Shown one piece after another: positions 11,865 to 35,269 of a DNA stretch of 64,000 nt. The DNA is from an uncultured Anaerolineaceae bacterium (GTDB lineage: Bacteria; Chloroflexota; Anaerolineae; JAAYZQ01): NCBI GenBank assembly GCA_964593865.1, contig CAZQKE010000135.1, forward strand, positions 9,849 to 73,848, written 5' to 3'. The stretch's first letter is position 1, and each line of letters starts with the position of its first letter. The notes below the pieces were generated by a model. It saw only the letters and a program-made list of their open reading frames with translations. It was not told where the DNA came from and did no database searches. A program made the translations under genes and the position numbers.

Positions 11865-11879
11865 CACCTACTCCCAATC

Positions 11880-13971: not shown

Positions 13972-13978
13972 CGGAACC

Positions 13979-16153: not shown

Positions 16154-18695
16154 GGGACATCTCCGCAACGGGCAGGGTGAAGCCAAAGGTGCTTCCCCGG
16201 CCTACCTGACTTTCTACCCACAGATCGCCGCCATGCAGTTCTACCAAAGACTTGGTAATCGCCAATCCCAGGCCAGTCCCCGGCTGTTCGCGTACCACGG
16301 GGTCCTCCGCTCGGTAGAAACGATCAAAGATGTGCTCCAAATCGTCGGGGTGAATGCCGATGCCGGTATCGCAGACGGTGATCTCCACCATGCCGTTTCT
16401 GCGCTCCGCCGCCACGGTGATCCGGCCCCCGGCGGGGGTGTAACGACAGGCATTGGTCAGCAGGTTGGTCAGAATCTGCTCCACCCGTTGGCGGTCGCCC
16501 AAGACGGTGACATCTTGGAGCGCGATCTTGACGCGCAGTCCCTTTTCCTCAATCATGGAGGTCAGGGAAGCAACAACCCCCGACACCGTATCCTGCAAGG
16601 GGAGGGGACGGGGCCGGAGGGTCAGCCGCCCGCTCTCAATACGTGCTATATCGGAGAGATCGGCCACCAGGCGCATCAGCCGCTGGGTGTTGCGGTGGAC
16701 GATTTGGAGGTAGCGTTGCCGTTGCTCTTGAGGGACATCTTTCCCCTCTCCCAACAACAATTCTGTGTACCCCCCGATGGCGGTCATCGGTGTACTCAGT
16801 TCATGGTACACGGCAGAGATGAAATCCCGCAGTTCCTTGGTGCGCTCCCGAACCTTCTTCTCCAATTCCCGGCTAAAGGCATGGACCTGTTCGTACAAAC
16901 GGGCGTTGGTGATGGCAATGGCAGCCTGGTTTGCCAGGGTGCGCAAGAGGTCCAGCTCCCGCCGCCGGTACAGATCACCGGAGAGTTTCCCCCCCACCAG
17001 GTAAAGGCCCACCAAGTTCCCACCGCTCAACAGGGGCAGAACGGCCTGGATGCCCGCCTCCTGCCAGGACGGTGGGACCTCTACCCCTTTCTCATCGGCA
17101 CGAGGCAGGTACTCACCCTCCGAGCCATCCAACAAGAGGGTTCTTTCCGAATCAAGGAGGGTGGCAACAAGGGGGCTGTCGACCGGAATGGAAAGGGAGG
17201 AAGCGGTTACCATCCCGTTACCCTCTTGATCCTCCGAGACGGTCAGGGGCACAAGATTCGCTTCCTCTTCATCGGGGATCAGCAACCAAGCACCTTTGAT
17301 GAGCAGTTGCTCCGGCACTTCACGGGTCAGCAAACGGGCAATGTCCGAGAAACGAATGCTGGTGCTGAGCCGATGGCTCCAACGGATCAAGGCGTCCTGA
17401 AAGTCCAGTTGCTGCCGAAAGAAGAGGCGGTCCACGGCGGTCTGCAAATAGGCACGCAGCGGATTGACCAGCAGGCCGATCAAAAGGGCCGAGATAAAAA
17501 CGACAAGGGTGTAGTTCCCGCTCCCGGCGGTGATGCCCAAAGCATTCGAGAGGAACGTGATAAGCAGCAGGTAGAGGGCGGCCAGCACGGCCGTCAGCAC
17601 ACCGTAAACCATGCTGCGGTTCACCACCAGGTCCACGTCCAAGAGACGGTAGCGCAACACGGCAAAGGCGAAGGAAAGGGGCAAGGTCAGTGTCCCCAAC
17701 AACAACAGGTCCGAAAGGGTGGGCATGTAGAGGTGCAACAAGGTCAGGACGATGTCCACCACGCTGGAGGCGATGGCAACGCCCAAGCCCCACATCACCC
17801 ACTGGAGCTGCCGCCGCACTACCGAATCCGCGGTGGTAGCATACACATACCCCATGCTCCCCAGGACAAAGGCAGCCGCCAAGACCAGGTATGCGAAAGC
17901 CACGTTGGAGAAGGTCTCAAAACGGGGCGCAAACCAGATGCCGGTCCCGGCCAACAACGACCGGGTATACGCCTGGATCGTCAGGGCCATCAGCACCAAG
18001 CTGGGGATGTAGAGCAGGAGCCACCACCAGGTTCCGGGCCGCAGCCGTTCCTTGGGGAAGAGCAGGGCAAAGTGGATGACCAAAGCAGGAGCCAGGGTCA
18101 AAGCCACGATCTGAACGTAGACCAGAAGGGGGGCATTTTTATCCAACAAAGCAAAATAGAGGCCCAAAGCCAGGGAGGCGATAAAGAAAAGACGGGCAGG
18201 CCGATCCCCAAACCGCTGCAACGCTACAACCATGCCCAGCAGGATAAAGACGAAGGCGATCAGGTTGCGGATGACAAAGCGCAGATCCAGACTCTTGGTG
18301 GTGATGAAAACGGGGATCTCTACAATCCGATCGCCCCGTTGCACCGTGACGACGGCCCAGCTATCCGCTTCCAGCCGGTTTTGCACCGACCGGTACTCCA
18401 TGAGGGTGGAGACGGGCCGACCGTCAACCTCAAGGATACGATCCCCCACCTGAAAACCGATTTCCGCACCGCCCGCCCGGAGGGCAGTCACAACCAGGTC
18501 CTCGTTCACCATGACGACGGCCCGGCCCAGTTCGGACTTTGTGCCTTCCGGTGGCTGGATCGAGTGCCAATGGACATCAAAGTAAATGCCGACCGCCTGG
18601 ATGCCGAAGGCCAAGACCGTCAACACGATGACAAAGGCCCGGTACGGCCACGCCAAATCGGTTGTCCGTCTCACCTTCACCACAGACGCACTCAT
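16143..18695 (-). CDS. Membrane histidine kinase with PDZ domain, multi-TM region and GAF
   Basis: N-terminal TM, PDZ-like [13 protein letters not shown], about 7-8 TM, GAF (ITNARLY), YHELSTP H-box, [21 protein letters not shown]. Confidence 0.9.
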
Positions 18696-21600: not shown

Positions 21601-24600
21601 TGGTTGTATCAAAGAGTCGCCCCACCTGCTGGTAGACGGTGTGCAACAGAGCATCCAGGTCCAAGGCGGAGCTGATGGCTTGGGCCATCTCGTTCAGGAC
21701 CGAGAGTTCGGCGATGCGCCGTTCGCGGTCGCCGAAGAGGCGGGCGTTTTGCAGGGCAATGGCCGCCTGTCCGGCAATGGTGCTCAGCAGGCGTAGGTGG
21801 CCCTCGTCATAGGCCGCTTCCCGCGTGTAGCTTTGGACGACGATGCCGCCGATGACCTGGTTTTCAATCTTCATGGGCACGCCCAACCACGAAAGGGCCG
21901 GTGTGCCGGAAGGGGTCAAGCCGTGTTCCTTATGGAAGGCATCGGTCCCGTGGGAAATGAGGATCGGTTCCCCCGTCTTGAGGAGGTAGCCCGTGAGGCC
22001 CTCGTCCGGACGGAGTGTGACAGGGGGTTGCCGTTGGCCACGTTCCACATAAAAGTCAACGCGGATCACATCCGCTTCTCGGTCATAGAGGGCAATGAAA
22101 AAGTTGTGCGTATCCAGCAATTTGCTAACGTGGGTGTAGATCAGTTCGGCCAGCGTCTCCTCATCCAACGCGCCGCTGAGGGCTTGACCGATCTCGTTGA
22201 CCGTAACCAGCTCCGCCACCTGGCGGCGGGTTTCTTGGAAGAGACGGGCGTTTTCCAGGGCCACGGCCAGCTGATCGGCGGCCATTTCCAGGGCGGCGGC
22301 ATCTTCCTCACTAAAGGCCCAGGCTTCTTCGGCCTCGGCGTGCAGCACACCGAGCACTTGGTCCCCAACCTTGATGGGGGCCGAGATGCTGGACGGAGCA
22401 GACCAATCGCCCATGTGGACGAACCGTTCATCGGCAAAGGCATCGTTTGCCACCACCGTCTCGCCGCTGGCGGCGGCAGAGCCGAGCAACCCCTGGCCGA
22501 TCTTCTGGCGGTAATCGGAGGGGAGGACGGACCAGAAGGCATCATTGGCAGCAGCAACGTACAGTTCTTGCCTTCTCTCATCCACCAAAAAGACGGCTAC
22601 ACGGGAATAGCCCAGGTTCCGGTGCAGGTCACGAACGGTGGTTTCCAACAGTTCTTGTGGTTCCAATTGGGCCGTAGCCCGCCGTCCGATCTCGTTCAGC
22701 AGGGAAAGGCGCACGGCTGCCCGCTGGGTGCTATCAAAGAGACGGGCGTTTTCCAGGGCTACGGCGGCTTGGTCGGCCAGGGTCGAAAGGAGGACCTGGT
22801 CGGTCTGGGTCAACGCGTATTTTTCCGAATGACCGGCCAACAGGACGCCCAGCAGCTTCTGCCCAACGGCAATGGGAGCCAGGAGCAAGGAACCGGCCAT
22901 CTCGGGGGCAAGGGGCAAGGGTGTAAATTCCGTCCGCTCCGTATCCGGGATCAGCAAGGATTTGCCACCGGCGGCCACCCGCCCCACGGCCCCTTCACCG
23001 GGGGCGTAGTGCCGGTCGGCGATCTGCTCTAGGTCCAGCCCATAGGCGACGACCGCCCCAAGTCGGTCATCGGGAGGCAACGGTTGGAAGATGACACTGA
23101 TATTGCAATGGAGGAGCAACTGCACCCCTCTGACCACCGTATCGAGTACCTTTTCCGGCTCAAGGGTGCGGTTCAGCCGACGCCCGATCTCGTTGATCAA
23201 GGCCAAATTGTCGGCCCGTCGCCGGGCATCGTGGTAGAGATTGGCGTTTTCAATGGCAACGGCGGCCTGATTGCCAAAGATGGCCAAGAGGTCCAAGACC
23301 TGGCGGGAAGGCCGCTTCCCATCCGCCGGATCGTCTACCGAGATCAAGCCGATCAGGCGTCCGCCCGATCCGCGCAGGGGGACCAAAAGCATGTCGTTGG
23401 GATGCCATTGGCCTTCCTTCCACTCGTCGGTGGGCGGCATAGCTACAACGGTATGCAGGTCGGCCCCCCAATCGTCCCGCCGGTCAAAGGGGAAGAAATA
23501 GCAAGGTCCCAGGCGGTACTCCTCGCGGAACAGGCGTTCATACCGCTCCACCGGCTGGCGAACGCGGGCCAGCTCCTCAAACTTGTGGAGGGGCAGACCT
23601 GCCGCGGCGACGCGGCGCAAGACCGCCCCCTTGCCGGTCCAGCCTTCGGCAACGCTGATGAGCACGACGTTGAACCCTGCCGTTTCCTGGATGGCATAGG
23701 CCACCTCTTCCAAGGCATCCTCCAGAGGCAGGTCGCTGCGCAGCTTCTGGCTGATGGTCAGCAGACGGTTCATCTGCTCCGTGCGGCGACGCAAGGCGTT
23801 GTTGCTCCGCACCTGCTCCTCAAAGCGCAGGGCGTTGCCGATGGCGATGGCAGCCTGTTCTGCCAGGGATTGAACGAAGGTCAGGCTTTGGTGGTCAAAG
23901 GCATAGGCTTCGGTATGGCGCAGCTGGATGATGCCCACTACATCGTGTTGGTAGGAGATGGGCACGGCCAGGGCGGAGAGGGTCCCTTCCTTGACGCAGA
24001 TAGGATACGATTCCCGGTCGGCATCCTCAATCAGGCGGGGCGTGCCACTGTTCAGCACCTGATAGGTGAGGCTTTCTTCGTCCGGGTGACGGAGCATCTC
24101 GCGGATGGTTTTTAGCTCCTCATCCGAATACCCACTGGCAACCCGCAATTCCAGTTGTCCCGTTTCCAGGTTCGTTAGCATCACGTTGCCGTGGGTCGCC
24201 CCCGTGGTCTGGATGGCAGCATCCAGAACCGAGTGGAGGATGGAATCCAGGCTCAAGGTGGAGTTCAGCTCCTGGGTGACGCGCTGCAAGGCGGTCAGTT
24301 CATCCAGGCGGGCCTGCAAGCTCTCGTCGGTCCGCTCATACAGGCGGGCGTTCTCCACAACGACCCCGGCCTGCCAAGCGATGGCATTCGCCAGCTGCAG
24401 CTCTTCTTTGCTGAACCTGCGCTCTTCCTGCGTCCAAAGCAAGTAGACGCCGCCGATGACTCGGTCGTGGGCGACCATCGGCGCAAAGAGGGTTGTCTTG
24501 CTGGGGAAGGCCGCCGCCGTATCGGGGTCTATACGGGGATCATGGAGCGGGTCGTTGCTGTACACCGCCTGGCGGGCCTGCCACGCTTCCTCAATGAAGG

Positions 24601-26911
24601 GATGACCGACGATGGGAATCCGGAATTCATGGTAGAGGGTTTGCTTATCATCGGGGATACGATAACCGGCCACGGCGTACATGTGCGTGCCCTGATCATT
24701 GGCCAAGTATACACCGGCCATATCCGCCCCCAGGGCACGGCACATCTCACGGGCTACGTTGCGCACCGTCTCCGTCAAATCCAGGGTGGAACCGATGGTC
24801 TCGCTTACCCGCAGGAGCAGTTGGGTGTGCTCGAACCGCCGCTGGGTTTCCTCATAGAGACGGGCGTTCTGAATGGCGATGGCCGCTTGGTCGGCTATGA
24901 TGCGCAGGGCCTCCACCTGCTCGGCAGAATAGGCGTTCACCCGGTCGCTGATCATCTCCAATGTGCCGATGAAAGAATCGGATGTTTGCAGGGGAAGGCC
25001 CACATAGGAACGCAAGGGAGCTTCTTCCGTGGAGATCTTGGGTCGGATCTCGGCAGTAGCTATATCGGGGATGATCAGCTCCCGGCGGTGACGGGCGATC
25101 CAGCCGCTGAAGCCTTCATCCAGCCGATAGAAACCACCGGTCTGGGAAGTGTAGGGCATATCGCCCGCACTGGCATAGGTGACGACCAACTGCTGTTCTT
25201 CATCCCAAAGACAGATTTCGGCAATATAGTATCCCACCAGGTCCCGAACGCGGGCCAAGATGAGGTCCAACGTTTGTTGCAGGTCCAGGTTGGCGACGAT
25301 CTCCCGCCCGATCTCGCCGATGGTCGAAAGCATCTGCACCCGCTGCCGCTGCTCCTGGAAGAGACGGGCGTTCTCTATGGCAATGCCGGCGTGGTCGGCC
25401 AAGTGTTCAATAAAGCGCAGGTCATCCTCGGTAAAGGCATCCGGTTCCGTGCTTTCCAGGTTCAGGACACCGATGACACGCCCTTCGCGCATGATGGGCA
25501 CGGCCAACTCGGAACGGGTCGTGCTCAGCATATCCACATAATCGGGATCCTGTTGCACATCGGGAACCAGTGCCGCTTCGCCGGTGCGGACGACACGCCC
25601 GATCACGCCCCGGTCCACCGACCACTTCTCGCGGACCAGGTCTTCGGCATTGTCGGGGCGCAGACCATGCCAGAACAGACGATCCAGAGATCGTCTATCC
25701 GATGAAAGGATACCGACAAAGCCGCTGCTGGCGTTGCAGGCTTCCACCGCCCGCCGGAGCACCAAACCGATGATCCGGTCCATATCCAGGGTCGCGCCCA
25801 ATTCATGATCTATTTCCTCAACCACCGCCAGCTCTTGCAGGCGCCTCTGGAGAGCCTCATCGGTGCTTTCGTAGAGACGGGCGTTCTCCAACGCCGTAGC
25901 CGCATGGACCGCAAAGGTGGAAAGCAGTTCTTGGTCTACGCCATCAAAGGGGGTATCATCCTTTTTGTTGATCACCTCCAGGACGCCGATGGGGCGGCCT
26001 CGGCTGATAAGGGGGACGCACAGGATAGAACGTGTCTGGAAGCCGGTGGCGATGTCAGGGGCGGTATACCACTTGGGATCGGAGCGGACATCGGGAACCA
26101 GGCGGCTTTCGCCGCTTCTGAACACTTCTCCGGCGATGCCCTCGCCGGGTGGGATCTTTTGTCCGAGGAGCTGCTCGGCATTGGGGCCGCGGACGACACG
26201 GAAGACCAAAGGTGCCTTTTCCGGATCGGCAGCCCTTTCATCGACCAGAAGCAAGGAACCGGCCTCGGCATTGAGCAACTCCACCGCTTTGTCCATGACC
26301 TGGTCAAGAACGATGTCCAGGTCCAATGTGGAGCTGATCGCCTGGCCTATTTCGTAGATCGTGGTCAGCTGCTGCAGGCGCAGGGCCAAGTCCTCACGGA
26401 TGCGGAGCTGACGCTTATCCATGGCAACGGCGTAGCCCACAATCAGGGTCAACGCCAAATAGACGATCAAACTTCCTGCGATGTAGGGAGAAAACGCTCC
26501 CCCACGTCCCAACCACGAATCCAAAAAGGGGAAGGTAAACAGGAGCCAAACAAACAGGTTGAGCACCAAAGCCGGCCACAGGCCGAGACGGGCAGCCAGG
26601 ATGGCAGCCAAGCCCACCCCAAAAAGGCGGATCTGGTTGCCTGCATCACCCGCCAGGTAGAGGGTCAAACCTACCAGGGCAATGTCGGCAACGCACAAGG
26701 CCAAACCGTGGTATTTCGGTTCGACAAAGCGCGGCACGCCCAGGTAAACGGCTGCGTGGACGAGCAAGATCGCTAAAATGCTCACAGCCACGGTGACGTT
26801 CCCGGAGAGCAAGGATGTCACCAAGAGGAACAGCCACCCCAGGCGCAGCATCCACAACAAGATGCTCTCTATGCGGTTGCCGGCTTCAATCGCGTTTCCG
26901 ATATTGCTCAT
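18692..26911 (-). CDS. Giant hybrid histidine kinase: TM region, about 11 GAF, PAS, HisKA, HATPase, 2 REC (~2740 aa)
   Basis: Eleven GAF-type repeats each closing in (E/Q/R/G/N)NAxL/RF-like helices, ILESIADGV PAS, VSHELRTP, NLVSNAWQY, GTGLGL, two REC domains; start ATG 26911 or TTG 26935. Confidence 0.93.
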   Translation of the reverse strand: MSNIGNAIEAGNRIESILLWMLRLGWLFLLVTSLLSGNVTVAVSILAILLVHAAVYLGVPRFVEPKYHGLALCVADIALVGLTLYLAGDAGNQIRLFGVGLAAILAARLGLWPALVLNLFVWLLFTFPFLDSWLGRGGAFSPYIAGSLIVYLALTLIVGYAVAMDKRQLRIREDLALRLQQLTTIYEIGQAISSTLDLDIVLDQVMDKAVELLNAEAGSLLLVDERAADPEKAPLVFRVVRGPNAEQLLGQKIPPGEGIAGEVFRSGESRLVPDVRSDPKWYTAPDIATGFQTRSILCVPLISRGRPIGVLEVINKKDDTPFDGVDQELLSTFAVHAATALENARLYESTDEALQRRLQELAVVEEIDHELGATLDMDRIIGLVLRRAVEACNASSGFVGILSSDRRSLDRLFWHGLRPDNAEDLVREKWSVDRGVIGRVVRTGEAALVPDVQQDPDYVDMLSTTRSELAVPIMREGRVIGVLNLESTEPDAFTEDDLRFIEHLADHAGIAIENARLFQEQRQRVQMLSTIGEIGREIVANLDLQQTLDLILARVRDLVGYYIAEICLWDEEQQLVVTYASAGDMPYTSQTGGFYRLDEGFSGWIARHRRELIIPDIATAEIRPKISTEEAPLRSYVGLPLQTSDSFIGTLEMISDRVNAYSAEQVEALRIIADQAAIAIQNARLYEETQRRFEHTQLLLRVSETIGSTLDLTETVRNVAREMCRALGADMAGVYLANDQGTHMYAVAGYRIPDDKQTLYHEFRIPIVGHPFIEEAWQARQAVYSNDPLHDPRIDPDTAAAFPSKTTLFAPMVAHDRVIGGVYLLWTQEERRFSKEELQLANAIAWQAGVVVENARLYERTDESLQARLDELTALQRVTQELNSTLSLDSILHSVLDAAIQTTGATHGNVMLTNLETGQLELRVASGYSDEELKTIREMLRHPDEESLTYQVLNSGTPRLIEDADRESYPICVKEGTLSALAVPISYQHDVVGIIQLRHTEAYAFDHQSLTFVQSLAEQAAIAIGNALRFEEQVRSNNALRRRTEQMNRLLTISQKLRSDLPLEDALEEVAYAIQETAGFNVVLISVAEGWTGKGAVLRRVAAAGLPLHKFEELARVRQPVERYERLFREEYRLGPCYFFPFDRRDDWGADLHTVVAMPPTDEWKEGQWHPNDMLLVPLRGSGGRLIGLISVDDPADGKRPSRQVLDLLAIFGNQAAVAIENANLYHDARRRADNLALINEIGRRLNRTLEPEKVLDTVVRGVQLLLHCNISVIFQPLPPDDRLGAVVAYGLDLEQIADRHYAPGEGAVGRVAAGGKSLLIPDTERTEFTPLPLAPEMAGSLLLAPIAVGQKLLGVLLAGHSEKYALTQTDQVLLSTLADQAAVALENARLFDSTQRAAVRLSLLNEIGRRATAQLEPQELLETTVRDLHRNLGYSRVAVFLVDERRQELYVAAANDAFWSVLPSDYRQKIGQGLLGSAAASGETVVANDAFADERFVHMGDWSAPSSISAPIKVGDQVLGVLHAEAEEAWAFSEEDAAALEMAADQLAVALENARLFQETRRQVAELVTVNEIGQALSGALDEETLAELIYTHVSKLLDTHNFFIALYDREADVIRVDFYVERGQRQPPVTLRPDEGLTGYLLKTGEPILISHGTDAFHKEHGLTPSGTPALSWLGVPMKIENQVIGGIVVQSYTREAAYDEGHLRLLSTIAGQAAIALQNARLFGDRERRIAELSVLNEMAQAISSALDLDALLHTVYQQVGRLFDTTNFFIATYEEGDEEWTLAFSREHGEPEPQARYSIYQGLTGYIIRNRRPLLFRTTEESAEFHREHGIERVGEQAKSWMGVPIIAADQVLGVMAVQSYDRENLYSPEDLSILTTIAAQVAVAMRNAQLYQQLVDFSNELEARVEERTRDLEEALQQLTLERDRAETLYRITSELGATLDLERVLDHALHLFADAMDVRHGTIMLLDQETGYLTLRAVLGPEEEQARRGTRTFFKRGVGLAGWVLENRKPVLIPDVTKDPRWLQVEDRPLPIRSVVAAPLSLGGGDIMGVLTLGHPEVGHFTEDHLQLVIAAAAQIAVAVNNSDLYAYITEQADQLGSMLQSQQEEAAKNRAILESIADGVLVLDHNGKVLLINPAAEELLGVSAIAIEGEHFRHMLGLGETTAQRELARGLYSELRRYLERAQREPTSLQPVTVRLEAEKRVLAVNIAPLITTVGDVPGLVAALRDISREAEVERLKNEFISTVSHELRTPMTSIKGYTDLLFLGMAGGLTDTQRNFLQIIKTNADRLTALVNDILDISRIETGRIRLTIEALDLVEIINNVVLSFREQYREKNLELIWEPPDELPQVRGDAARVTQILTNLVSNAWQYTLPGGKVTITVQPNDGFLQVNVSDTGIGIGEDDLDRIFDRFYRVDDPVVEEAGGTGLGLSIVKMFVEMLGGQIWVESELGVGSTFSFTLPLVTTEVPEIEPDLLTEESLVVGRRQKILVVEDDHDLALLLRRQLEAEGYQVLLAGSGEDALWLAREEQPHLITLDIMLPDLDGFVVLERLKDSPVTAPIPVIIVSVLTDSERGYALGAVDYVVKPFDEEKLLQSIRTALAPGEQDEQRTLLVVDDDPDIRGFLEQALSHQGYRVQTAAGGQEALDMVRESPPDLILLDLKMPGMDGYEVIRRLKENEDTRAIPIIVITASPVDKERDKVRVLGMGASQYLVKPLSVQELVAEIKKAIAEGPSE

Positions 26912-26959
26912 GAACACTACCCCCGGTTTTCCCAAAGGTCAACCGGTGGAGAGGGTTGT

Positions 26960-27856
26960 CTACAGGCCCTGCTGCGCGCGACGGCGGGCCTCCGCGGCGA
27001 CTTCGGTGATCTCGCGGATGTCGGAGAAGGGAGCGGTATCGTGCTGAATGAGGCCCACGGCCAGGGTCATCAGGGGTGCCCGCTGGGTTGTGCCGTCAGG
27101 GCCGACGACCTCAATGTAACCCCGTTCCCGGTCGCGGAAGTTGTAGAAGGTGGCGACCTCTTCACGGAAGCGTTGTTCCAACCGCTCCTTCATCTGCGGC
27201 GCGACATCGGGCGTGGTGATGATCAGGAAATCGTCACCGCCGATATGGCCGATGAAATCGTCGCCGGAGCCGAGTTCATCCACCACTTCGGTCAGCAGCA
27301 TGGCCGTAAAGCGCAGGACGTCGTCCCCCGCCACAAAGCCGTAGACATCGTTAAAGTCGTTGATGTGATTGATGCCGATATAGAGCACGGCCCAATCGTC
27401 GCGCCGCATGATCTGGCGCAGCTGATCTTCGATCAGCTTACTGCTGGGCAACCCCGTCACCGGACTGGTCAGGTTCAACCAGCCGGCCCTCCGCAACGCC
27501 CCCTGGACACGCAGCAGGAGAAGCTGCAGGTCAAAGGGTTTGGTGATATAGTCATCTGCGCCCAGTTCCAAACCGGCGATCTGGTCACTCCGCTCATCCT
27601 TCTGGGTAAGAAAGATGATGGGAATGTGGCTGGTGCGCAGGTTGGAGCGCAGACGACGGCAGACCTCGTAGCCGTTGATGTCCGGCAACATGATGTCCAG
27701 GATCACCAGGTTGGGTAGCTTACGACGACAGATCTCCAACGCCTCCTGACCTCGGGGGGCCACGATAGTTTCATAGCCCTGAGAATCAAAGTAGATGCGG
27801 AGCATGTTGGAGATGTCAAAGTCGTCTTCAACAATTAGCAGACGTCCTTTGCTCAT
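26960..27856 (-). CDS. Response regulator with (probably degenerate) GGDEF domain
   Basis: REC (EDD, ILDIMLP, KPF) plus FNDVYGFVAGDDVL and GHIGGDDF; start ATG 27856 after GGAGGT. Confidence 0.88.
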   Translation of the reverse strand: MSKGRLLIVEDDFDISNMLRIYFDSQGYETIVAPRGQEALEICRRKLPNLVILDIMLPDINGYEVCRRLRSNLRTSHIPIIFLTQKDERSDQIAGLELGADDYITKPFDLQLLLLRVQGALRRAGWLNLTSPVTGLPSSKLIEDQLRQIMRRDDWAVLYIGINHINDFNDVYGFVAGDDVLRFTAMLLTEVVDELGSGDDFIGHIGGDDFLIITTPDVAPQMKERLEQRFREEVATFYNFRDRERGYIEVVGPDGTTQRAPLMTLAVGLIQHDTAPFSDIREITEVAAEARRRAQQGL

Positions 27857-27957
27857 CCTGTTTACCTCCCTCACGTAGCGCCAGAACCTTTGCGCTATCT
27901 ATCTCTGCGGTTCATCCCCCGAACCGCCAAGATGCCAAATAGAATCTCCCTCGGCGG

Positions 27958-29040
27958 TCACCCGCCCGAACCGCCGAGACGCGCATTCCGGCGAATCCGC
28001 TCTATTTCCTCGTCGGTTACGGCCCGCTCAAAGCTGCGGAACCCGGCCAGTCGAAAGCCATGTTTGGCCGCCAATCGGGCGATCTCGTCCACCCGTTCCA
28101 GGGAGACCTCTTTGCCGATGGTATAGCTCTCATAACGGCCTTCCAGGGCCAGGACCATGGTCTCGGACATGCAGGCATAGGCTTTGCCCGGCGGAAAGCC
28201 AAAATCAAAGCCAAAATCCACATCACCGGGCACGCTCACCATCCCCCCCTCAATGACCAGGACATCATTTCGCCGCTCCACGACACGGCGGGAGACGTTA
28301 CGCGGACGGGCCACGTCGCAGACGACCGCACCGCTCTTGAGATGCTCCGGTTCCAAAAAAGGGGTGACGGCACTGGTGACGGTCAGCACGATGTCGGCTT
28401 GCCGCACCGCATCTAGCTCGGTCTGCGTTGTGGCCGTGGCCCCTTCCGCTTCAACCAACGGCTTGATCTCTTCCAAGCGACGCGGGTCGCGCCCGATAAG
28501 TATCACGTGGGGGACGCTCCGGGCGATCAGCCGGGCACACGCCTGCCCCACCGAGCCGTAGGCCCCGACCACGGCAACGGTACACTGCGCCGGATCCCGG
28601 TCCAACCGTCTGGCCCCTTCTAACGCCGCCTCTACGGCAATGGCTACGGTGTAACTATTGCCCGTCGTCACCGGGATCGAGAGGCGACGGGAAATGGTGA
28701 TCCCGGCATCCCCCACAACGGAGGTGAACGCCCCCAACCCCAGGATCTTGGCCCCCAGCTTTTCGGCCAGCCGCCCGGTTTGCACGATTTTGCGGTAGGC
28801 CGTTGCCGTCCGCACTTGGAGCATCCGCCGCGGCGTTAGAGGGCAAGCCAGCAGCCAGCCTTCAATCTCTTTGCCCGTCGCCTCCGAGCGGACGCCGACG
28901 ACATGGGAAAGATACACCGGAGGAAAGAACCGGGAGCCAAAGTCAATGATGGCTGGCGGCAGTTTGCCCAGCAACGGGTATTTGCGGGCTACATCCTTTT
29001 GTGGTTCAATGGGATGGATGATGAACGCAAAATTGTCCAT
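27958..29040 (-). CDS. Long-chain acyl-ACP reductase (AAR)-like NAD(P)-dependent oxidoreductase
   Basis: FAFIIHP, LGLGAFTS, TTGNSYT, Rossmann VVGAYGSVG, DVARPRNV, IEGG, AYACMSET (Cys equivalent to the AAR catalytic Cys). Confidence 0.75.
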   Translation of the reverse strand: MDNFAFIIHPIEPQKDVARKYPLLGKLPPAIIDFGSRFFPPVYLSHVVGVRSEATGKEIEGWLLACPLTPRRMLQVRTATAYRKIVQTGRLAEKLGAKILGLGAFTSVVGDAGITISRRLSIPVTTGNSYTVAIAVEAALEGARRLDRDPAQCTVAVVGAYGSVGQACARLIARSVPHVILIGRDPRRLEEIKPLVEAEGATATTQTELDAVRQADIVLTVTSAVTPFLEPEHLKSGAVVCDVARPRNVSRRVVERRNDVLVIEGGMVSVPGDVDFGFDFGFPPGKAYACMSETMVLALEGRYESYTIGKEVSLERVDEIARLAAKHGFRLAGFRSFERAVTDEEIERIRRNARLGGSGG

Positions 29041-29092
29041 AGCCAGACGATTCCCCGCCGGCCTCCGCCTGCTATCCCTCCATCTATCATTC

Positions 29093-30337
29093 TCAACGAG
29101 GGTACAGCTGAGGGTGCAGGTCAGAATCGGGCCACTTTAGGTGATCGCTTTCCTCATAAGAGACGTTGTGTGTAATCACCGACCGCTCGTTGGTACGGAC
29201 CAACACTACGTCCGATTCTATCATCCGGGCCGGATAGATGGTCAAATCCGCGCCGATGCGGCAATGATGGCCCACACAGCCACCCAACACCGTCATCCCC
29301 ACATCTTCCAACTGTCCCCGGTGGAAGGTGCGCAGCGGTTTGGGCAACAGGTTAAAGTCGGTAAAGGTCGTCCCTGCTCCGATGAAGGAATCACGCCCGA
29401 CCACGCAGAATTGCAGGCAGGCGTTCTGGGCCACCATCGTATCTTCCATCAAGGTAGTCATAAACAAAGAGGTGCGGAAGGGAAGGTAACACCGGTCACC
29501 GACAACGCTGATCAGCAGTTCGTTGCCGTGCAGGATGCTCACATTGTTGCCGATGATGCAGTTGGAGATCACGACCCCCGCACCGATATAGACGTTATCG
29601 CCGATGATGGTCGGCCCCTGGATGACCGCCGTGGGATCAATTTGGGTATTCCGCCCCACCTTGACCATCGCCGAATTGGAAAGAAACTGCTTTCGTTCCA
29701 GCAAGGAGCGCCAGAGGATCTTGAGCACCGTGCTGGGCTTGTTCAAGCTCCGCTCCATGCGTGCGCCCTCGGCCAGAACGCCGAACAGGCAATTGGCGAT
29801 AAAGATGTGCACCCAATTCTCTACCGAAAGAAAAGCCCGCAAAGGGATTTGGAAAACCAGGTCTCCCTTTTCCGACGACATGTGGGTCGGCACACGGTAG
29901 GAGCCAAACTCATACGCACCGCAATCGATCACCAGGGGGCGGGTGAGCTCCTCCAACCCACGGGGGTAGTACCACATGTTGGCTACATAGACATCACCTT
30001 CCCGCCGGATGCCGCTTTGCAAAGGCAAGGCGTGGGTAGTAATCACCTCATCGTCCAGGGAAAAGGCCACGCGGCAGGCTTTGCCCAAAGAGCGGGCCTT
30101 GGATAAAAAGGTCTCGATGAAGGCTTGATCAAAAAAGAGATTGTCCCGGTAGACTAGGGTTTCTTCATAACTATCGGGAATCTGCTCGAAAAAATCGGTT
30201 TCTATCTCGGAATCGCAATAAGGCTCCAGAATATCTTTTTGATGCAGCCACAGAGGCTTGTTCAACACCCGCAATTCACGCGCAGGCTCGTTGAAAGGTG
30301 GGATTTTGCGTTTGTCGCGGATGATCACTTTCCTCAT
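29093..30337 (-). CDS. Left-handed beta-helix (hexapeptide repeat) protein with a nucleotidyltransferase-like N-terminal remnant
   Basis: VGRNTQIDPTAVIQGPTIIGDNVYIGAGVVISNCIIG repeats; N-terminal LNKPLWLHQ. Confidence 0.8.
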   Translation of the reverse strand: MRKVIIRDKRKIPPFNEPARELRVLNKPLWLHQKDILEPYCDSEIETDFFEQIPDSYEETLVYRDNLFFDQAFIETFLSKARSLGKACRVAFSLDDEVITTHALPLQSGIRREGDVYVANMWYYPRGLEELTRPLVIDCGAYEFGSYRVPTHMSSEKGDLVFQIPLRAFLSVENWVHIFIANCLFGVLAEGARMERSLNKPSTVLKILWRSLLERKQFLSNSAMVKVGRNTQIDPTAVIQGPTIIGDNVYIGAGVVISNCIIGNNVSILHGNELLISVVGDRCYLPFRTSLFMTTLMEDTMVAQNACLQFCVVGRDSFIGAGTTFTDFNLLPKPLRTFHRGQLEDVGMTVLGGCVGHHCRIGADLTIYPARMIESDVVLVRTNERSVITHNVSYEESDHLKWPDSDLHPQLYPR

Positions 30338-30349
30338 GCGATCCCTCGT

Positions 30350-31012
30350 TCAATCCAACGGTCGCTTTTCGATCAAGTATGTGCAGGTTGGATCGCCTTT
30401 GGCAATGCACAGGATCTCTTCCACGCGGACGTTTTTGCCCCCCGTGACCCAGTGCAAACCCTCCTGGAGCAGCCCCAAACCGGCATGGCAGATAGGTACA
30501 TCCGAGTGTCGCCCCCAACAAACAGGGCAGCGATCAATGTGGTAGAGAAAGTGATCAATATCCTCCTCCACCCGGACGATCTGATCGCTGGTCTTGTTGA
30601 AGGTTTCGGCCATGGCGTTGATGCCGACTTTGAGCTTCATGCTCAGAGGCAAAAGGCGGAAGGCCAGATCGGCCACGCCCAGCACCGCGCCGAATTCACG
30701 GATGCCGTAATAGAACCCAGCCCGTCCGGCCCGGATGGCCAGACCGCGCCCCCCTCGCGGCCCGTACATATCGTCCAGGGCCTGGTTCAGGGCAGCCATC
30801 TCCTCAAAACTCCAGCCCAGGTCCAGGTTGTTAGGCGGATAGTTGTTGATGCGGTGGCGCAATTTGGCCAAGTTCAGAACGGCGTTGACGCCGTTCTTGC
30901 CCATCACATCCTCCAGGGCGATCAGCATCATCCGCCCCATTTTGTTGGGCCAATAATATTGCACCTTTTCTTCTTCTTCCTTGTGTTCGTGGCTGTGTTC
31001 ATTATCGGTCAT
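30350..31012 (-). CDS. V4R (4-vinyl reductase) domain protein
   Basis: CPVCWGR, ICH..LGLLQEGL, VEEILCIAKGDPTC Cys pattern. Confidence 0.88.
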   Translation of the reverse strand: MTDNEHSHEHKEEEEKVQYYWPNKMGRMMLIALEDVMGKNGVNAVLNLAKLRHRINNYPPNNLDLGWSFEEMAALNQALDDMYGPRGGRGLAIRAGRAGFYYGIREFGAVLGVADLAFRLLPLSMKLKVGINAMAETFNKTSDQIVRVEEDIDHFLYHIDRCPVCWGRHSDVPICHAGLGLLQEGLHWVTGGKNVRVEEILCIAKGDPTCTYLIEKRPLD

Positions 31013-31036
31013 CGAGTACCCCTCACAAAACGATCC

Positions 31037-31819
31037 CTAACCGGCCAGAAAATCGAGCAAAATGGCGTGGAATCGGTCGGGTTCATCCAGCATGGGGAAA
31101 TGGCGCGAATGTTCCAGGATTTCTATGCGGGAACGGGCCACACGGCGAAACAGCTCGGCCTGTTTGGGGTCCACGATCTTGTCGCCCTTCCCATAGACGC
31201 CCAGCGTCGGCATCCGCAGCGTGCCCAACCGGGGGGTGAGATCGGTACGGTGCAAGGAGTGGATGCTCCACAAGAACGATTCCAGCGTCATCTTGGATAG
31301 GTCTCGCATGAGCAGATCGTACCACTCACTCCAGTTGGCTGCGATCCAGGGGGCAAAGATTTTGATGCCCAGCCGCAACAGGGCGGGCGAGTTCCAAACC
31401 AGGAAGGCGATCCATGGATAGCCGGCCAGCTTGAGGAAAAAGTTCAGCGACCGGCCGTCCACCGGCGAGCCGACGACGGCAACTTTTTCCACCCGCTGGG
31501 GCCGGTCCAGGGCCAGATTGAGGGCAACCGTTCCCCCCATTGAATGGCCGATCACCGGCGCGTGCTGGATGCCCATGCGCTCCATGAATTGGTCAACGAG
31601 GGCAACAAAGTCCGCAATTTCGTAGCTTTCGCGGCGTTTATCCGATTCGCCAAACCCCCAAAAGTCCAAAGCATAGGCCCGGTGTCTGGGGGCCAGGGCT
31701 TCCATCGTGCCCAACCAACAACCCCACGACCCCAGCCAGCCATGCAACAGAACAACCGGTTTTCCTCGGCCATACACTTCATAGTGTACGACCCCCTGAC
31801 TGGTGACGATTGAACTCAA
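31037..31819 (-). CDS. Alpha/beta-fold hydrolase (canonical Ser)
   Basis: LLHGWLGS, DFWGFGES, GHSMGG nucleophile elbow, GKGDKIV, HFPMLDE. Confidence 0.92.
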   Translation of the reverse strand: MSSIVTSQGVVHYEVYGRGKPVVLLHGWLGSWGCWLGTMEALAPRHRAYALDFWGFGESDKRRESYEIADFVALVDQFMERMGIQHAPVIGHSMGGTVALNLALDRPQRVEKVAVVGSPVDGRSLNFFLKLAGYPWIAFLVWNSPALLRLGIKIFAPWIAANWSEWYDLLMRDLSKMTLESFLWSIHSLHRTDLTPRLGTLRMPTLGVYGKGDKIVDPKQAELFRRVARSRIEILEHSRHFPMLDEPDRFHAILLDFLAG

Positions 31820-31828
31820 TCTTTTCTC

Positions 31829-32200
31829 CTAGATGAGGCGGCTAAAGTCTTCGGCAGCCCGCCGCATATCCAAAAAGACCAAACCGAGCTTGGCATTCTG
31901 GCGGGCCAGAACGGTCAAGACCGCATCCTCCCCCACCGCCGACAGGATCACATAGCCGTTCGCGCCGCGAATGTAAACCTGATCAAGGACACCACGCCCC
32001 AGCTCACTGGCGATCCGCTCGCCCAGGCTGAGCATGGCCGCGCTCATCGCCGAGACCCGGTCCTCTTCCACATCGGGCGGCAGGGCGGAAGCGATGATCA
32101 GGCCATCCACGCTGACAACAGCCGAAGCCTCAATGTCCGGTGTATTGACCTGCAAGTCTTTGAGACGGGCGATCATTTGCTCTGTGCGCGATTGTGCCAT
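31829..32200 (-). CDS. Roadblock/LC7 domain protein (MglB/CvnB-like)
   Basis: SAVVSVDGLIIAS, AMSAAMLSLGE, VYIRGANGYV, AKLGLVF pattern; 123 aa. Confidence 0.92.
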   Translation of the reverse strand: MAQSRTEQMIARLKDLQVNTPDIEASAVVSVDGLIIASALPPDVEEDRVSAMSAAMLSLGERIASELGRGVLDQVYIRGANGYVILSAVGEDAVLTVLARQNAKLGLVFLDMRRAAEDFSRLI

Positions 32201-32260: not shown

Positions 32261-32800
32261 CTACTCCTCTTCGGGAGGCGTCTTTTCCAAAATGGTGTAC
32301 AATAACTCCAACAATACGTTTTTGACGCTCTCCTTATCGGTAGCCACGCAGGGCAAAATTTTGACATCAGGGCTGACCTTGAGGGCGATCCGCAGGTCTT
32401 CGGGCGGCCAAGCATCCTCCAAGTCCTGCTTGTTGGCCGCTACCACATAGGGTGTATCCGCATAATGGCGGAAGACATCCAAGATGCGGCGGGCTTCGCG
32501 AAAGGTCTCAGGACGTACACTATCCACCAGCACGATGAACCCCAACATGCCTTCGGACAGGATCTCCCACATAAAGTCAAACCGCTTCTGACCGGGAGTC
32601 CCGAACAGATAGAGCACCAGGTCATCATCCACCGTGATCCGCCCAAAGTCCATCGCCACGGTGGTTTCCTTCTTCACCCGCGAGGTCGCATCGGTGATCT
32701 TGCGTTCCGTGGAGACCACATCAATCTCACTGACGCTCTGGATGAAGGCGGTTTTGCCTGCGCTGAAAGGTCCGGTGACAACCATCTTCACTGTTTGCAT
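32261..32800 (-). CDS. MglA/CvnD-family small GTPase
   Basis: G1 GPFSAGKT, TTVAMDFG, G3 LFGTPGQKRF, G4 NKQD, CVA G5; start ATG 32800 (or GTG 32812). Confidence 0.93.
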   Translation of the reverse strand: MQTVKMVVTGPFSAGKTAFIQSVSEIDVVSTERKITDATSRVKKETTVAMDFGRITVDDDLVLYLFGTPGQKRFDFMWEILSEGMLGFIVLVDSVRPETFREARRILDVFRHYADTPYVVAANKQDLEDAWPPEDLRIALKVSPDVKILPCVATDKESVKNVLLELLYTILEKTPPEEE

Positions 32801-32865
32801 CTTTGCGCACACCTTGTCCTTAACTAGTCATGCTCTCTTCCACGCGGGCCGGTGATTGAAGCCGA

Positions 32866-33684
32866 TCACAGCCGTTTGATGCGAGCAATCAGTTTATGGA
32901 TGACAGATCGCTTGACGGCGGGCGGGCGGGAGACAACCTCAGCCGTGGGCGGGCGGCGCGGTGGTGCGCCTTCCGGCTCCACCATTTCAACCAGCCCGGC
33001 CTGCAACAGGCCGTAGATGATCTTGCGGATCTGGAAATCGTCCATACCGATCCGCTGGGCGATCTGCCTGATTGTATTGCGGGGGTTGATATAGGAAATC
33101 ACCCGCCATTCGTCCACGCTGAGATTGATGTTGCGCAGCTGAGCCTGGGGCCGGTCGGTAAACTTGAGGGCCATATCCAGGTCCGGCAACTCATCCTGGA
33201 GCCGCTCCCATTCCTTGACCCGGCGGCTGCCCTCCAAGATGATATTTTCCAGATCAATCGAGACGGTGATGACGCCGCCGGGGGGTAGCTGGTTCGGTTC
33301 AAAGTGGAACAACCCCTCCGTCCACGTGAACAAACCGTAGACGGTGTCCAAAATATCGTTGCGGACGCTGTTGATAATGTCCTCGTGGGTGACATACCCG
33401 GCGTTGATCAACAACATGCCCAGTTCTTTATCGGGCTTGTTCCCCGATTTGGTGCGGATGATCTTGGCCTGCTCTGCCGTGAGTTTGCCGTTGCGCGCCA
33501 GGATGCTGGCAAGGTGTTCATCCCGGTTGCTGTTGGTAGCGTATACCAGTTTCCCTTCCCGAAAATATAGAGCGGTCACGCCGGATTGCACCTGAATCGT
33601 CAACGCACCGGTTTTGCGAGCCAGATGGATCAGATTCAAGAGCTGCGTCGTGCTAAAGTCTCTGAGGTTTCCTTTCAGTGCCAT
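32866..33684 (-). CDS. DUF4388/PATAN-domain protein with C-terminal winged-helix
   Basis: MALKGNLRDFS..QLLNLI...KTGAL, LFTWTEGLFHF, ENIILEG; C-terminal EWRVIS..TIRQIA..GMDDFQIRKIIYGLLQAGLVE. Confidence 0.87.
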   Translation of the reverse strand: MALKGNLRDFSTTQLLNLIHLARKTGALTIQVQSGVTALYFREGKLVYATNSNRDEHLASILARNGKLTAEQAKIIRTKSGNKPDKELGMLLINAGYVTHEDIINSVRNDILDTVYGLFTWTEGLFHFEPNQLPPGGVITVSIDLENIILEGSRRVKEWERLQDELPDLDMALKFTDRPQAQLRNINLSVDEWRVISYINPRNTIRQIAQRIGMDDFQIRKIIYGLLQAGLVEMVEPEGAPPRRPPTAEVVSRPPAVKRSVIHKLIARIKRL

Positions 33685-34009: not shown

Positions 34010-35269
34010 ATGCGCAATCAACAGAGAACCTGGCAGACGATTGTAATCGCAGTGGTTCTGTTTGCCGTCGCGCTGTATGCGACCGCTTGCTTGCCCTCCG
34101 GCCCCTCCGATGTCACACCAACACCGACCAAGACGCCCAAACCCCCTCTGACCGAGATCGCCGTGCTGCCGACCGCAACACCCACCCCCACTCTGACACC
34201 TACGCCTTCCCCCACCCTCGCACCGACCGACACGCCTACCGCCACACCCGAACCGACCGAAACGCCGCCTCCCACCGTCGCCGCCTGGCCTACCCTGGCC
34301 CCCAACGTTTGCCCTCTGACCGGCCAGGAAGTCAAAGACCCGGCCTTGTTGGAACGCCGTCCCCTGGCCATCAAAATCCAGAACGCCCCCATCTCCCGGC
34401 CCCAGTACGGCTTCCCCCAAGCGGACATCGTCTACGAGCACCTCTCGGAAGCCGGCATCACCCGTTTCACCGCCATCTACCTTTGCAAACCGGTGGAAAA
34501 GATCGGCTCCGTCCGCAGTGCGCGCTTCATTGACCTGGAGATCCCGGCTATGTACAAAAGCCTCATGGCCTTTTCCGGGACCAGCGCGGGCCTCTACCCC
34601 AAATTCCTCAACGCCGATTTTTACGACCGGGAATTCTGCTACGGTTGGGGGCTGCATTCCGAAGCCTTCTACCGGGATACCGAATTGCGCCGGAAAGGCA
34701 TACCCATTGAGCACACCCTGTTCGCCAGCGCAAGCAAGATCTGGGCCATTGCCGACGAACTGGGAATCAACCAGCGGCAGGAGCTGAAAGGACTGAACTT
34801 TGGCGTAGAAGTGCCCGAAGGCGGTCAACCGGCTACCCACATCAACATCCCCTACCCCCACCGCGATATGGTGGTGGACTATCGCTACGACCCGCAACAG
34901 GGCGTATACCTGCGCTGGCAAGGCGGAGACCCCTTCTTGGACGCAGCCACCGGCAAACAGATCACCGTGACCAACGTCGTCGTCCTGTACGCAACCCACG
35001 TGGACACCGACATCTACGAAGACGAACCCCGCCGCAACCACCCTTCGGTCCAGATTCAGCTTTGGGGCACAGGGCCGGCGGTCATCTTCCGCGACGGGCA
35101 GGCCTTTGAAGGGCTATGGGCCAGGCCCCGCCGGGAGGACATGGTCGTTTTCCGCGACCCTACCGGCCAGATTCCGATCCCCCTCAAGCCCGGCAATACC
35201 TGGATGCAACTGGTCCCCTTGCCGGGGCACCGCTGGAGCTTTGAGGTCTCTTGGGATGCCGAGGAGTAG
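34010..35269 (+). CDS. DUF3048-family lipoprotein with Pro/Thr linker
   Basis: Lipobox-like ALYATAC, TPTP linker, RPLAIKIQN..RPQYG..ADIVYE...GITRF, GSVRSAR. Confidence 0.85.
   Translation: MRNQQRTWQTIVIAVVLFAVALYATACLPSGPSDVTPTPTKTPKPPLTEIAVLPTATPTPTLTPTPSPTLAPTDTPTATPEPTETPPPTVAAWPTLAPNVCPLTGQEVKDPALLERRPLAIKIQNAPISRPQYGFPQADIVYEHLSEAGITRFTAIYLCKPVEKIGSVRSARFIDLEIPAMYKSLMAFSGTSAGLYPKFLNADFYDREFCYGWGLHSEAFYRDTELRRKGIPIEHTLFASASKIWAIADELGINQRQELKGLNFGVEVPEGGQPATHINIPYPHRDMVVDYRYDPQQGVYLRWQGGDPFLDAATGKQITVTNVVVLYATHVDTDIYEDEPRRNHPSVQIQLWGTGPAVIFRDGQAFEGLWARPRREDMVVFRDPTGQIPIPLKPGNTWMQLVPLPGHRWSFEVSWDAEE

Follow-up and report, generated by a model that had tools for sequence, protein, structure and literature searches.

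In this work we analyzed a stretch of 64,000 nt (hereafter, the window) from the genome of an uncultured Anaerolineaceae bacterium of the phylum Chloroflexota (assembly GCA_964593865.1, contig CAZQKE010000135.1, positions 9,849-73,848), and in particular a cassette of four genes located in the middle of a long co-directional array of signalling genes. The cassette codes for a predicted thioester reductase (RED), a protein with a left-handed beta-helix (LbH), a V4R protein and an alpha/beta-fold serine hydrolase (ABH1). The folds of these proteins, the conservation of the catalytic residues of RED and ABH1 and of a polar site in the LbH protein, the maintenance of gene order, and a distribution among genomes that matches that of the small GTPase encoded in the same array are consistent with a role as accessory sensor and ligand-processing arm of a kinase/GTPase system, the ligand being probably a hydrophobic compound derived from an acyl thioester. 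We see the chances of this proposal as evenly balanced. The narrower claim of a fatty-aldehyde messenger, put forward in a previous reading of the window made without database searches (the sequence-only reading), seems to us unlikely, because neither the chain length nor the acyl carrier is fixed by the results.

Conservation of the Cassette and Co-Occurrence With the Signalling Genes

The cassette consists of four co-directional open reading frames (ORFs) on the minus strand, within positions 27958-31819 and separated by intergenic gaps of 52, 12 and 24 nt, an arrangement that has the look of co-transcription:

27958-29040, minus strand: RED, predicted stand-alone thioester reductase of the AAR / PigE-N / KecF superfamily, 360 aa (NCBIfam and PDB matches)
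29093-30337, minus strand: LbH protein, predicted to be GlmU/ST0452-shaped, 414 aa (Hexapep, 1e-17; AlphaFold2 model and Foldseek)
30350-31012, minus strand: stand-alone V4R protein, 220 aa (Pfam V4R, 1.6e-6; AlphaFold2 model and Foldseek)
31037-31819, minus strand: ABH1, alpha/beta-fold serine hydrolase, 260 aa (Abhydrolase_1, 1.4e-31)

Genes for a PATAN protein, a GTPase and a Roadblock protein lie upstream, and those for a response regulator with REC and GGDEF domains and for a giant kinase downstream. This order, PATAN-GTPase-(Roadblock)-ABH1-V4R-LbH-RED-REC/GGDEF-giant kinase, was kept, except for single-gene gaps, in the 14 loci fetched from related genomes, where genes were called as ORFs by ourselves and assigned by BLASTP. 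A search of 40 relatives gave RED orthologues with 50-72% identity in many Anaerolineae families. In addition, 185,579 species genomes were scanned with two LbH motifs, which yielded at least 587 confirmed matches; the best 80 loci were examined, and all of them belong to Chloroflexota (Anaerolineae, Thermoflexales, Caldilineaceae). Altogether the gene order was seen in about 90 loci of this phylum, a recurrence far beyond chance. The location of the four genes inside a signalling operon, as had been described from the sequence, is thus borne out: the ORFs are real, and the same order is found in the 14 related genomes and the 80 best loci.

The modularity of the arrangement was evaluated in the 57 loci, among the best 80, in which the whole stretch from the GTPase gene to the REC-GGDEF gene is present on the contig. 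All four cassette genes were found in 34 of them, while the V4R gene was missing at its usual place in 12, RED in nine and ABH1 in six; a Roadblock gene was present in eight. No RED orthologue was found elsewhere in the nine genomes with RED-less operons, four of which have only a paralogue with 42-46% identity. All 13 genomes lacking the V4R gene at its usual place showed an orthologue (55-61% identical) at another place of the genome, in some cases immediately upstream of the PATAN gene. Other classes of Chloroflexota have a conserved (V4R)-LbH-REC/GGDEF-giant kinase block, with the hydrolase gene sometimes following the kinase. This block contains no GTPase and no stand-alone RED; in the same genomes, the GTPase (68-70% identical) and its PATAN partner are found together at another locus. 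The V4R-LbH-REC/GGDEF-kinase arrangement is that of phototrophic filamentous Chloroflexia, while isolates of the Thermoflexus and Anaerolineae types have the full operon. In one family the arrangement is PATAN-GTPase-Roadblock-V4R-LbH-hydrolase-Roadblock, with RED on another contig, and one Anaerolineae genome without the LbH and RED families has a minimal PATAN-GTPase-V4R module (G257, L147:7976-10147), a hint that the V4R protein may be able to act with the GTPase alone. The cassette has a modular character and does not form an indivisible unit. The consideration of the four genes as a unit holds as far as their link with the signalling genes is concerned, but RED, ABH1 or V4R are each absent from some operons. 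As for whether the four genes might commonly occur apart from signalling genes, this was never the case in the approximately 90 Anaerolineae-type loci.

Co-occurrence at the genome level, suggested in the sequence-only reading as a way to check the association, was analyzed in one evenly drawn sample of 201 Chloroflexota genomes searched with four queries. Taking as a reference the 37 genomes where the LbH family is present, the V4R orthologue was found in 38 (the same 37 plus one), the RED family in 37 (exactly the same set), and the GTPase orthologue (at least 68% identical) in 38 (36 of the 37, plus two others). In the only LbH-positive genome without a close GTPase, the contig harboring the operon ends at that point. 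The stand-alone form of RED is present in 17 of the 37 genomes with this family, the other 20 having only a 690-790-aa paralogue with a membrane helix. The association is therefore strongly positive, and the shared phyletic pattern holds even where the genes sit at separate loci. Since the genome sets coincide, we argue that LbH, V4R, RED and the GTPase function jointly, also in those genomes where they are encoded at different loci.

RED, a Putative Thioester Reductase Different From AAR

The domain scan revealed a Shikimate_DH-type NAD(P) domain in RED. The protein scored 206.7 bits over positions 53-356 with the PigE model of NCBIfam (NF053554), without reaching the full-model cut-off of 850, and 121.8 bits with the AAR model TIGR04058, whose equivalog cut-off is 449.7. 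Matches in PDB were PigE (4ppm, 1.7e-33) and the AAR of Synechococcus (6jzq, 3.9e-27). The motifs GAFTS (aa 103-107), TTGNSYT (aa 125-131) and YAC (aa 288-290), previously noted as similar to those of cyanobacterial AAR, are indeed present and aligned with AAR and PigE: in HMMER alignments they face GGFTS, TTGNTHT and FAC of 6jzq, so that Cys290 corresponds to the catalytic Cys294 of AAR and also to the catalytic Cys of PigE (4ppm). Among the 63 RED orthologues compared, no variation was seen in Cys290, in Glu293 or in the three Gly of GxxGxxG.

The sequence-only reading had also pointed out that no aldehyde-deformylating oxygenase (ADO, PF11266) is encoded in the window. This holds, and none was found in the whole host genome (88% complete) either, with the control search being positive in Synechococcus elongatus. 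The TIGR04058 score far under the cut-off, the better fit of the PigE N-terminal model and the absence of the ADO partner indicate that RED is a member of the AAR/PigE-N superfamily, as judged by sequence comparison, but not an AAR. Hence, of the AAR-like reductase initially proposed, the homology, the motifs and the catalytic Cys stand, and the identity as AAR does not. An alkane pathway was rejected, given the absence of ADO in the genome and the low AAR score.

RED shares with the AAR of S. elongatus (6JZQ/6JZU; TIGR04058) the fold, the length, the GxFTS/TTGNxxT/(F/Y)AC motifs, the catalytic Cys and the GxxGxxG sequence; AAR has ADO as partner, whereas RED is found in a signalling operon. 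The N-terminal part of PigE, from the MAP pathway of prodigiosin synthesis, is the best-scoring characterized relative, with Cys296 aligned (PMC8341465), and KecF and TamH contain related reductase domains. Unlike PigE and KecF, RED lacks an aminotransferase, and no polyketide or pyrrole pathway genes go with it; it is a stand-alone protein, or, in its paralogue, is fused to an N-terminal domain and a membrane helix. No class III aminotransferase domain was detected in the 360 aa of RED, nor was a gene for such an enzyme found in the operon. In PigE, the domain at the N-terminus converts a thioester into an aldehyde, with an acyl-Cys intermediate thought likely, as in AAR and glutamyl-tRNA reductase (GluTR). 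In these enzymes the intermediate is reduced by NADPH, and AAR and GluTR pass the aldehyde straight to a partner (PMC8341465). In a similar manner, RED would use NAD(P)H to reduce an acyl thioester to the aldehyde, with the acyl group transiently bound to Cys290.

The RED paralogue of 690-790 aa is also present in the genome analyzed here (G000:C42:5252-6316; locus L027:4328-6499), as well as at loci L028-L030 and L139-L142. It is composed of an N-terminal domain of around 300 aa, for which no Pfam or NCBIfam model was matched, an AAR/PigE-type reductase domain that keeps the sequence YACLAE, and a C-terminal hydrophobic membrane helix. No conserved neighbours of this fused form were found across seven loci.

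The V4R Protein

The match of the V4R protein with the Pfam model of the same name (1.6e-6, 28.5 bits) just misses the cut-off of 31, and a sequence search against PDB gave no match, so that its solved relatives were recovered by fold comparison only. The AlphaFold2 model (predicted local distance difference test, pLDDT, 92.7) corresponds to the two-layer alpha/beta fold of H-NOX, V4R and TRAPPC3 proteins. In Foldseek it matched the H-NOX domain 4iae (E 3.3e-6, template modelling score, TM, 0.71), and probabilities of 1.0 were obtained with H-NOX, with the phenol sensors MopR/PoxR/DmpR and with TRAPPC3, including its palmitoylated form 6aq3. All these matched relatives bind hydrophobic ligands (palmitate, phenols or haem). 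The link between V4R domains and small hydrophobic ligands that had been put forward is thus true of the relatives with this fold, as has also been described in the literature (PMC10933270), and by analogy the V4R protein of the cassette would have a hydrophobic cavity. Five Cys residues (162, 165, 175, 202 and 210) are invariant in 55 out of 55 orthologues. They map to the part of the protein that, in PoxR and archaeal (Thor) TRAPPC3, has been described as containing a zinc site of four Cys (PMC10933270). A weak match with the BchJ model of NCBIfam was also obtained, and V4R proteins are known to accompany bacteriochlorophyll (BchJ) and pre-PcyA/bilin gene clusters (PMC10151467).

A comparable organization is that of H-NOX/HnoK, where the gene for a stand-alone protein with a fold of the same superfamily (TM 0.6-0.7) lies next to those for a histidine kinase and a REC-GGDEF protein; stand-alone H-NOX sensors control adjacent kinases and cyclic di-GMP (c-di-GMP) proteins. 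The protein described here differs in belonging to the V4R branch with the Cys cluster, not to the haem branch, and in being attached to additional enzymes and to a GTPase module.

Two more V4R paralogues are encoded in the same genome (G000:C80:23584-24216 and G000:C52:9217-9843), and related genomes carry between two and five. Selenocysteine was considered for V4R paralogues that had been flagged as containing one TGA, among them one of these two, and rejected: in both cases the TGA is the stop codon, read through by the match.

The LbH Protein and Its Distant Relatives

The AlphaFold2 model of the LbH protein, built with 41 orthologues, showed a pLDDT of 78.9 and a predicted TM-score (pTM) of 0.81, with lower values in residues 211-330 (pLDDT around 47-71). 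Its top match in Foldseek was the bifunctional sugar-1-phosphate nucleotidylyltransferase/acetyltransferase ST0452 (5z0a; E 1.7e-8, probability 1.0), followed by GMPPA/GMPPB, VTC1 and GlmU, and weakly by eIF2B (E 5.8e-3, probability 0.44). When the family profile was compared with PDB, the helical arm and beta-helix of GlmU were aligned (2.6e-10). The protein matched LbH_EIF2B of Pfam with 48.4 bits, while no NCBIfam model was near its cut-off, the best being Arch_glmU (45.1 bits against 292.1). A homologue search gave only close Anaerolineae relatives, with uninformative names ('multidrug transporter', 'isoleucine patch superfamily'). According to the model, the protein is formed by a degenerate nucleotidyltransferase-like N-terminal domain, a helical arm and a left-handed beta-helix, that is, the architecture of GlmU and ST0452, which is also shared by their non-catalytic relatives GMPPA and eIF2B gamma/epsilon. 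The protein is not a plain acyltransferase, an activity that the sequence-only reading had noted as frequent among LbH folds.

The difference with GlmU and ST0452 resides in the nucleotidyltransferase loop and in the beta-helix, which has its own invariant motifs. The protein has RDKRKIPPFNEPAR in place of the G-x-G-T-R loop, the stretch of the N-terminal domain at that position being VIIRDKRKIPPFNEPAR, and the family shows the pattern PF(N/G)ExA...NKPL instead. The Gly-rich nucleotide loop is absent from all 89 orthologues and from the distant members of the family. Because of this replacement, nucleotidyl transfer by the LbH protein is unlikely. Nevertheless, 57 residues are invariant, or have a single exception, in the 89 sequences, which come from several classes; those located in the beta-helix half include D281, E298, Q304, N305, R315, D327, H357 and R371.

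Comparison of the LbH profile with 1.84 billion cluster representatives retrieved 116 clusters at E ≤1e-30 and 596 at E ≤1e-10. Full-length distant members keep the N-terminal PFG-D/E-x-A ... N-x-PL and the C-terminal G-x-C-x-G-H sequences, and are found in two kinds of context, lipid-type glycosyltransferases and two-component signalling, both of them reminiscent of the window. Contexts of the first kind were found on metagenome contigs (loci L129-L131, L136 and L138). Genes for an HpnB/CruG-like glycosyltransferase of family GT21 and an AP-type phosphodiesterase were found immediately downstream of such members, a GT2-LPG_synthase_TM gene upstream of another, and a GT21::LbH fusion of 813 aa (P0207) is encoded by a gene that begins 4 nt after that of a PAS histidine kinase. 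This fusion, by its kinase neighbour, is also an example of the second kind. Another is found in an unrelated lineage (locus L134:2717-8619), where the gene of an LbH-family protein lies between that of a thioester-reductase-like short-chain dehydrogenase/reductase (SDR) and those of a seven-transmembrane (7TM)-GAF histidine kinase and a REC-REC protein. The SDR (TIGR01746, 72.7 bits; NAD_binding_4) is not homologous to AAR. The recurrence of reductase, LbH-family protein and kinase with a different reductase fold gives independent support to a functional link between reductase and LbH protein in a signalling setting.

The Hydrolases ABH1 and ABH2

ABH1 matched Abhydrolase_1 with 110.5 bits (1.4e-31). 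Its nucleophile elbow is GHSMGG, with Ser93 conserved in 70 of 71 orthologues, and Asp213 and His240 in all of them. Thus the Ser hydrolase assumed in the sequence-only reading is present, and its sequence indicates an intact Ser-Asp-His triad that is catalytically plausible. No subfamily could be assigned, with all NCBIfam matches being far under their cut-offs and those in PDB corresponding to generic esterases and C-C hydrolases. A second hydrolase, ABH2, encoded at the other end of the array, is 39% identical to ABH1 and has a Ser to Thr change in the elbow (GHTLG). The distal pair formed by a REC protein and ABH2 after the kinase was found again in many loci, and the nucleophile is often lost in the distal paralogues, which read GHALGG, GHGLGG or GHALGA. 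From its sequence, ABH2 seems to have lost catalytic activity while retaining the hydrolase fold, and its role in the signalling array might be that of an adaptor or of a binding protein.

The Signalling Neighbours

The remaining genes of the array, all of them on the minus strand, are the following, from the first to the last:

32866-33684, minus strand: DUF4388/PATAN protein, first gene of the array (DUF4388, 3.6e-29)
32261-32812, minus strand: MglA/CvnD-like small GTPase, 183 aa (ATP_bind_1, 5e-20; Ras, 1.6e-9)
31829-32200, minus strand: Roadblock/LC7 (MglB-like) protein (Robl_LC7, 3.8e-20)
26960-27874, minus strand: response regulator with REC and degenerate GGDEF domains (Response_reg, 8.8e-28; GGDEF, 3e-12)
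18692-26935, minus strand: hybrid histidine kinase, 2747 aa, with around 10 GAF domains, PAS, HisKA, HATPase and two REC domains
16143-18695, minus strand: PDZ-GAF kinase
13979-16186, minus strand: REC-GAF kinase
12271-13989, minus strand: triple-GAF protein
11472-11867, minus strand: REC-only protein
10667-11458, minus strand: ABH2, hydrolase paralogue with Ser to Thr change, last gene of the array

Across 69 orthologues, the P-loop, GTPGQ and NKQD sequences of the GTPase show no variation or a single exception. The PATAN gene always adjoins that of the GTPase in the loci examined, and such proximity has been noted before for MglA-family GTPases, with PATAN neighbours reported for MglA groups 1 and 5 (PMC4316618). 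No match with DUF742 (CvnC) was found among the operon proteins, and the protein that precedes the GTPase matched only DUF4388. The GGDEF motif of the response regulator is GGDDF here, with variation in the first three positions across 65 orthologues (G/S, G/D, D/N), so that this protein is probably a pseudo-cyclase adaptor and not a c-di-GMP synthase. In nearly all loci it is followed by the giant multi-GAF kinase. Inside the array, promoter and terminator sites were no more common than in shuffled sequence, with the exception of a promoter-like site (TTGACT-17-TATAAT) upstream of the PATAN gene (33788-33760, minus strand). Divergent from this gene is one coding for a DUF3048 protein that has a hydrophobic segment at its N-terminus and a linker rich in Pro and Thr (34010-35269, plus strand), a neighbour found again in around 20 of the 80 related loci.

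The array resembles in its logic the conservons, the G protein systems of actinobacteria, which are operons with a kinase (CvnA), a Roadblock protein (CvnB), CvnC, a GTPase (CvnD) and accessory proteins such as the P450 CvnE and the GAF protein CvnF, with these accessory proteins modulating the kinase (PMC13343842, PMC13621833). In both cases a histidine kinase and a CvnD/MglA-like GTPase are joined with enzyme-like or ligand-binding accessory proteins, and in the array sometimes with a Roadblock protein. The kinases with which CvnE and CvnF occur have no external sensor domain, and stimulation of the kinase by CvnF8 has been observed in vitro (PMC13343842). However, the array lacks DUF742/CvnC, having PATAN instead, Roadblock is mostly absent, and it belongs to another phylum. 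Its kinase is a giant cytoplasmic multi-GAF hybrid protein, and the accessory set (V4R, LbH, hydrolase and thioester reductase) is wholly different. With respect to the MglA/MglB switch, a GTPase-Roadblock pair exists in the window, but the Roadblock protein matched the MglB model with only 18.2 bits, and most orthologous operons have no Roadblock gene.

A Model for the Cassette and Alternative Explanations

The core of the proposed system would be made up of the giant multi-GAF hybrid kinase, the REC/pseudo-GGDEF adaptor, the MglA-like GTPase and the PATAN protein that accompanies it. The V4R protein would be the ligand receptor, and the LbH protein its constant partner beside the kinase, both of them docking on the adaptor and the giant kinase. 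RED and ABH1, the latter as a working enzyme, and possibly the LbH protein through acyl transfer, could produce, transform or eliminate a hydrophobic ligand of acyl origin, and the state of this ligand might reach the kinase and the GTPase/PATAN switch by protein contact, in a way that recalls H-NOX/HnoK or the action of CvnE/CvnF on CvnA. In this scheme we infer the nature of the ligand and its binding by V4R, as well as the direction in which information flows and all contacts between proteins. As for the synthesis, sensing and turnover of a messenger suggested in the sequence-only reading, the genes are real and catalytically plausible, but this is one of several readings, and the fatty acyl substrate is unsupported.

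Several observations weigh against our proposal. Each component can be absent from the operon (9 of the 57 loci lack RED, 6 lack ABH1 and 12 lack V4R), and five of the nine RED-less genomes, metagenome-assembled genomes of unreported completeness, have no gene of the RED family. The 37 genomes with the LbH family span only seven families, so that few independent gains or losses may lie behind the co-occurrence. Part of the LbH protein may be a pseudoenzyme, since the nucleotidyltransferase signature is lost. The GT2/GT21 and phosphodiesterase contexts of its distant relatives fit a biosynthetic output equally well. Finally, a ligand other than an acyl lipid is conceivable, given that V4R relatives accompany tetrapyrrole and bilin genes (PMC10151467).

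The cassette could thus be a regulated output instead of an input, with the kinase/GTPase system of filamentous Chloroflexota controlling the modification of envelope lipids or glycolipids through acyl or sugar chemistry of the LbH protein, thioester reduction by RED and ester hydrolysis by ABH1, and with V4R as a lipid carrier. Regulators and their targets often share operons in bacteria, distant LbH members adjoin GT21, AP-type phosphodiesterase and GT2-LPG_synthase_TM genes, with one GT21 fusion, and the RED paralogue with the C-terminal membrane helix is present in every sampled LbH-positive genome that has no stand-alone RED. However, the Chloroflexota operon has no glycosyltransferase, transporter or lipid-synthesis gene in or beside it, in other classes V4R-LbH is directly against the REC-GGDEF and kinase genes, with nothing else, and RED, or ABH1 at its usual place, can drop out of the operon while V4R-LbH-kinase stays. 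We consider this possibility unlikely.

Another explanation, which we find somewhat more doubtful, would dispense with a diffusible messenger. The nucleotidyltransferase-LbH, V4R and Roadblock proteins would be protein-binding pseudoenzymes that constitute the missing platform of guanine nucleotide exchange factor (GEF) or GTPase-activating protein (GAP) of the GTPase. The loss of the G-x-G-T-R loop in the LbH protein would agree with this, as would the resemblance of its model to GMPPA and, weakly, to eIF2B (LbH_EIF2B, 48.4 bits), the nearly identical phyletic profiles of LbH, V4R and GTPase, the minimal PATAN-GTPase-V4R module of one genome, and the loss of the ABH2 nucleophile in several lineages. 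In addition, 49 of the 57 operons have no gene for Roadblock, the protein that would be expected to act as GAP, so that some other regulator would be needed. Yet the catalytic residues of RED and ABH1 are complete in all or nearly all orthologues, the dense invariant polar residues of the LbH domain are typical of an active or ligand site, and in other classes of Chloroflexota it is the kinase, and not the GTPase, that V4R-LbH accompanies. The eIF2B match is itself weak (Foldseek E 5.8e-3, probability 0.44).

A more speculative scenario, which we see as a long shot, would be a G-protein and two-component system proper to Chloroflexota, in which the MglA-like GTPase and the giant kinase are regulated by proteins with eukaryote-like GEF-platform folds (TRAPPC3-like V4R, longin-like Roadblock and the degenerate, eIF2B gamma/epsilon-like nucleotidyltransferase-LbH protein), gated by an acyl ligand or adduct made by RED and removed by ABH1. 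If true, it would be a bacterial counterpart of lipid-loaded exchange factors of the TRAPP type.

The ligand could alternatively be a tetrapyrrole, a bilin or another non-acyl hydrophobic cofactor, handed by V4R to the GAF domains of the kinase and tailored by the enzymes. Haem-binding H-NOX domains are the structures closest to the V4R model, the kinase carries around 10 GAF domains, and V4R proteins are found beside bacteriochlorophyll (BchJ) and pre-PcyA/bilin clusters (PMC10151467). Nevertheless, there is no haem oxygenase, bilin reductase or tetrapyrrole gene in the operon, the Cys cluster marks the zinc-binding V4R/TRAPPC3 branch and not the haem-binding H-NOX one (PMC10933270), and neither a thioester reductase nor a GlmU-like protein has a known role in tetrapyrrole tailoring, all of which leaves this alternative as very improbable. 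Finally, ordinary hydrocarbon or wax metabolism of the AAR type that happens to adjoin signalling genes, to which the homology of RED to AAR and its catalytic Cys could point, is effectively refuted by the AAR score (121.8 against 449.7 bits), the lack of ADO in the genome, the class-wide gene order with signalling genes and the phylum-wide covariation in their presence.

Significance

Chloroflexota include filamentous bacteria that are abundant in wastewater sludge and hot springs. Bacterial Ras-like GTPases are understood mainly from cell polarity in Myxococcus and, recently, from the conservons of actinobacteria, with their signal inputs being largely unclear. The literature search for this operon or cassette returned no description, and the signalling system analyzed here, formed by a giant sensor kinase and a Ras-like GTPase and common to filamentous Chloroflexota, is to be considered undescribed. 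In it, a putative ligand binder of the V4R type and three enzyme-like proteins, with catalytic residues retained in two of them, are linked to a kinase/GTPase pair. The system is highly conserved throughout the phylum, in hundreds of Chloroflexota species, and is open to experiment. Solving the role of the cassette would provide functions for a large GlmU-like family and for a branch of AAR/PigE-type reductases, define what prokaryotic V4R proteins, to which the ancestor of TRAPPC3 belongs, do beside small GTPases, and possibly reveal a new endogenous signal molecule.

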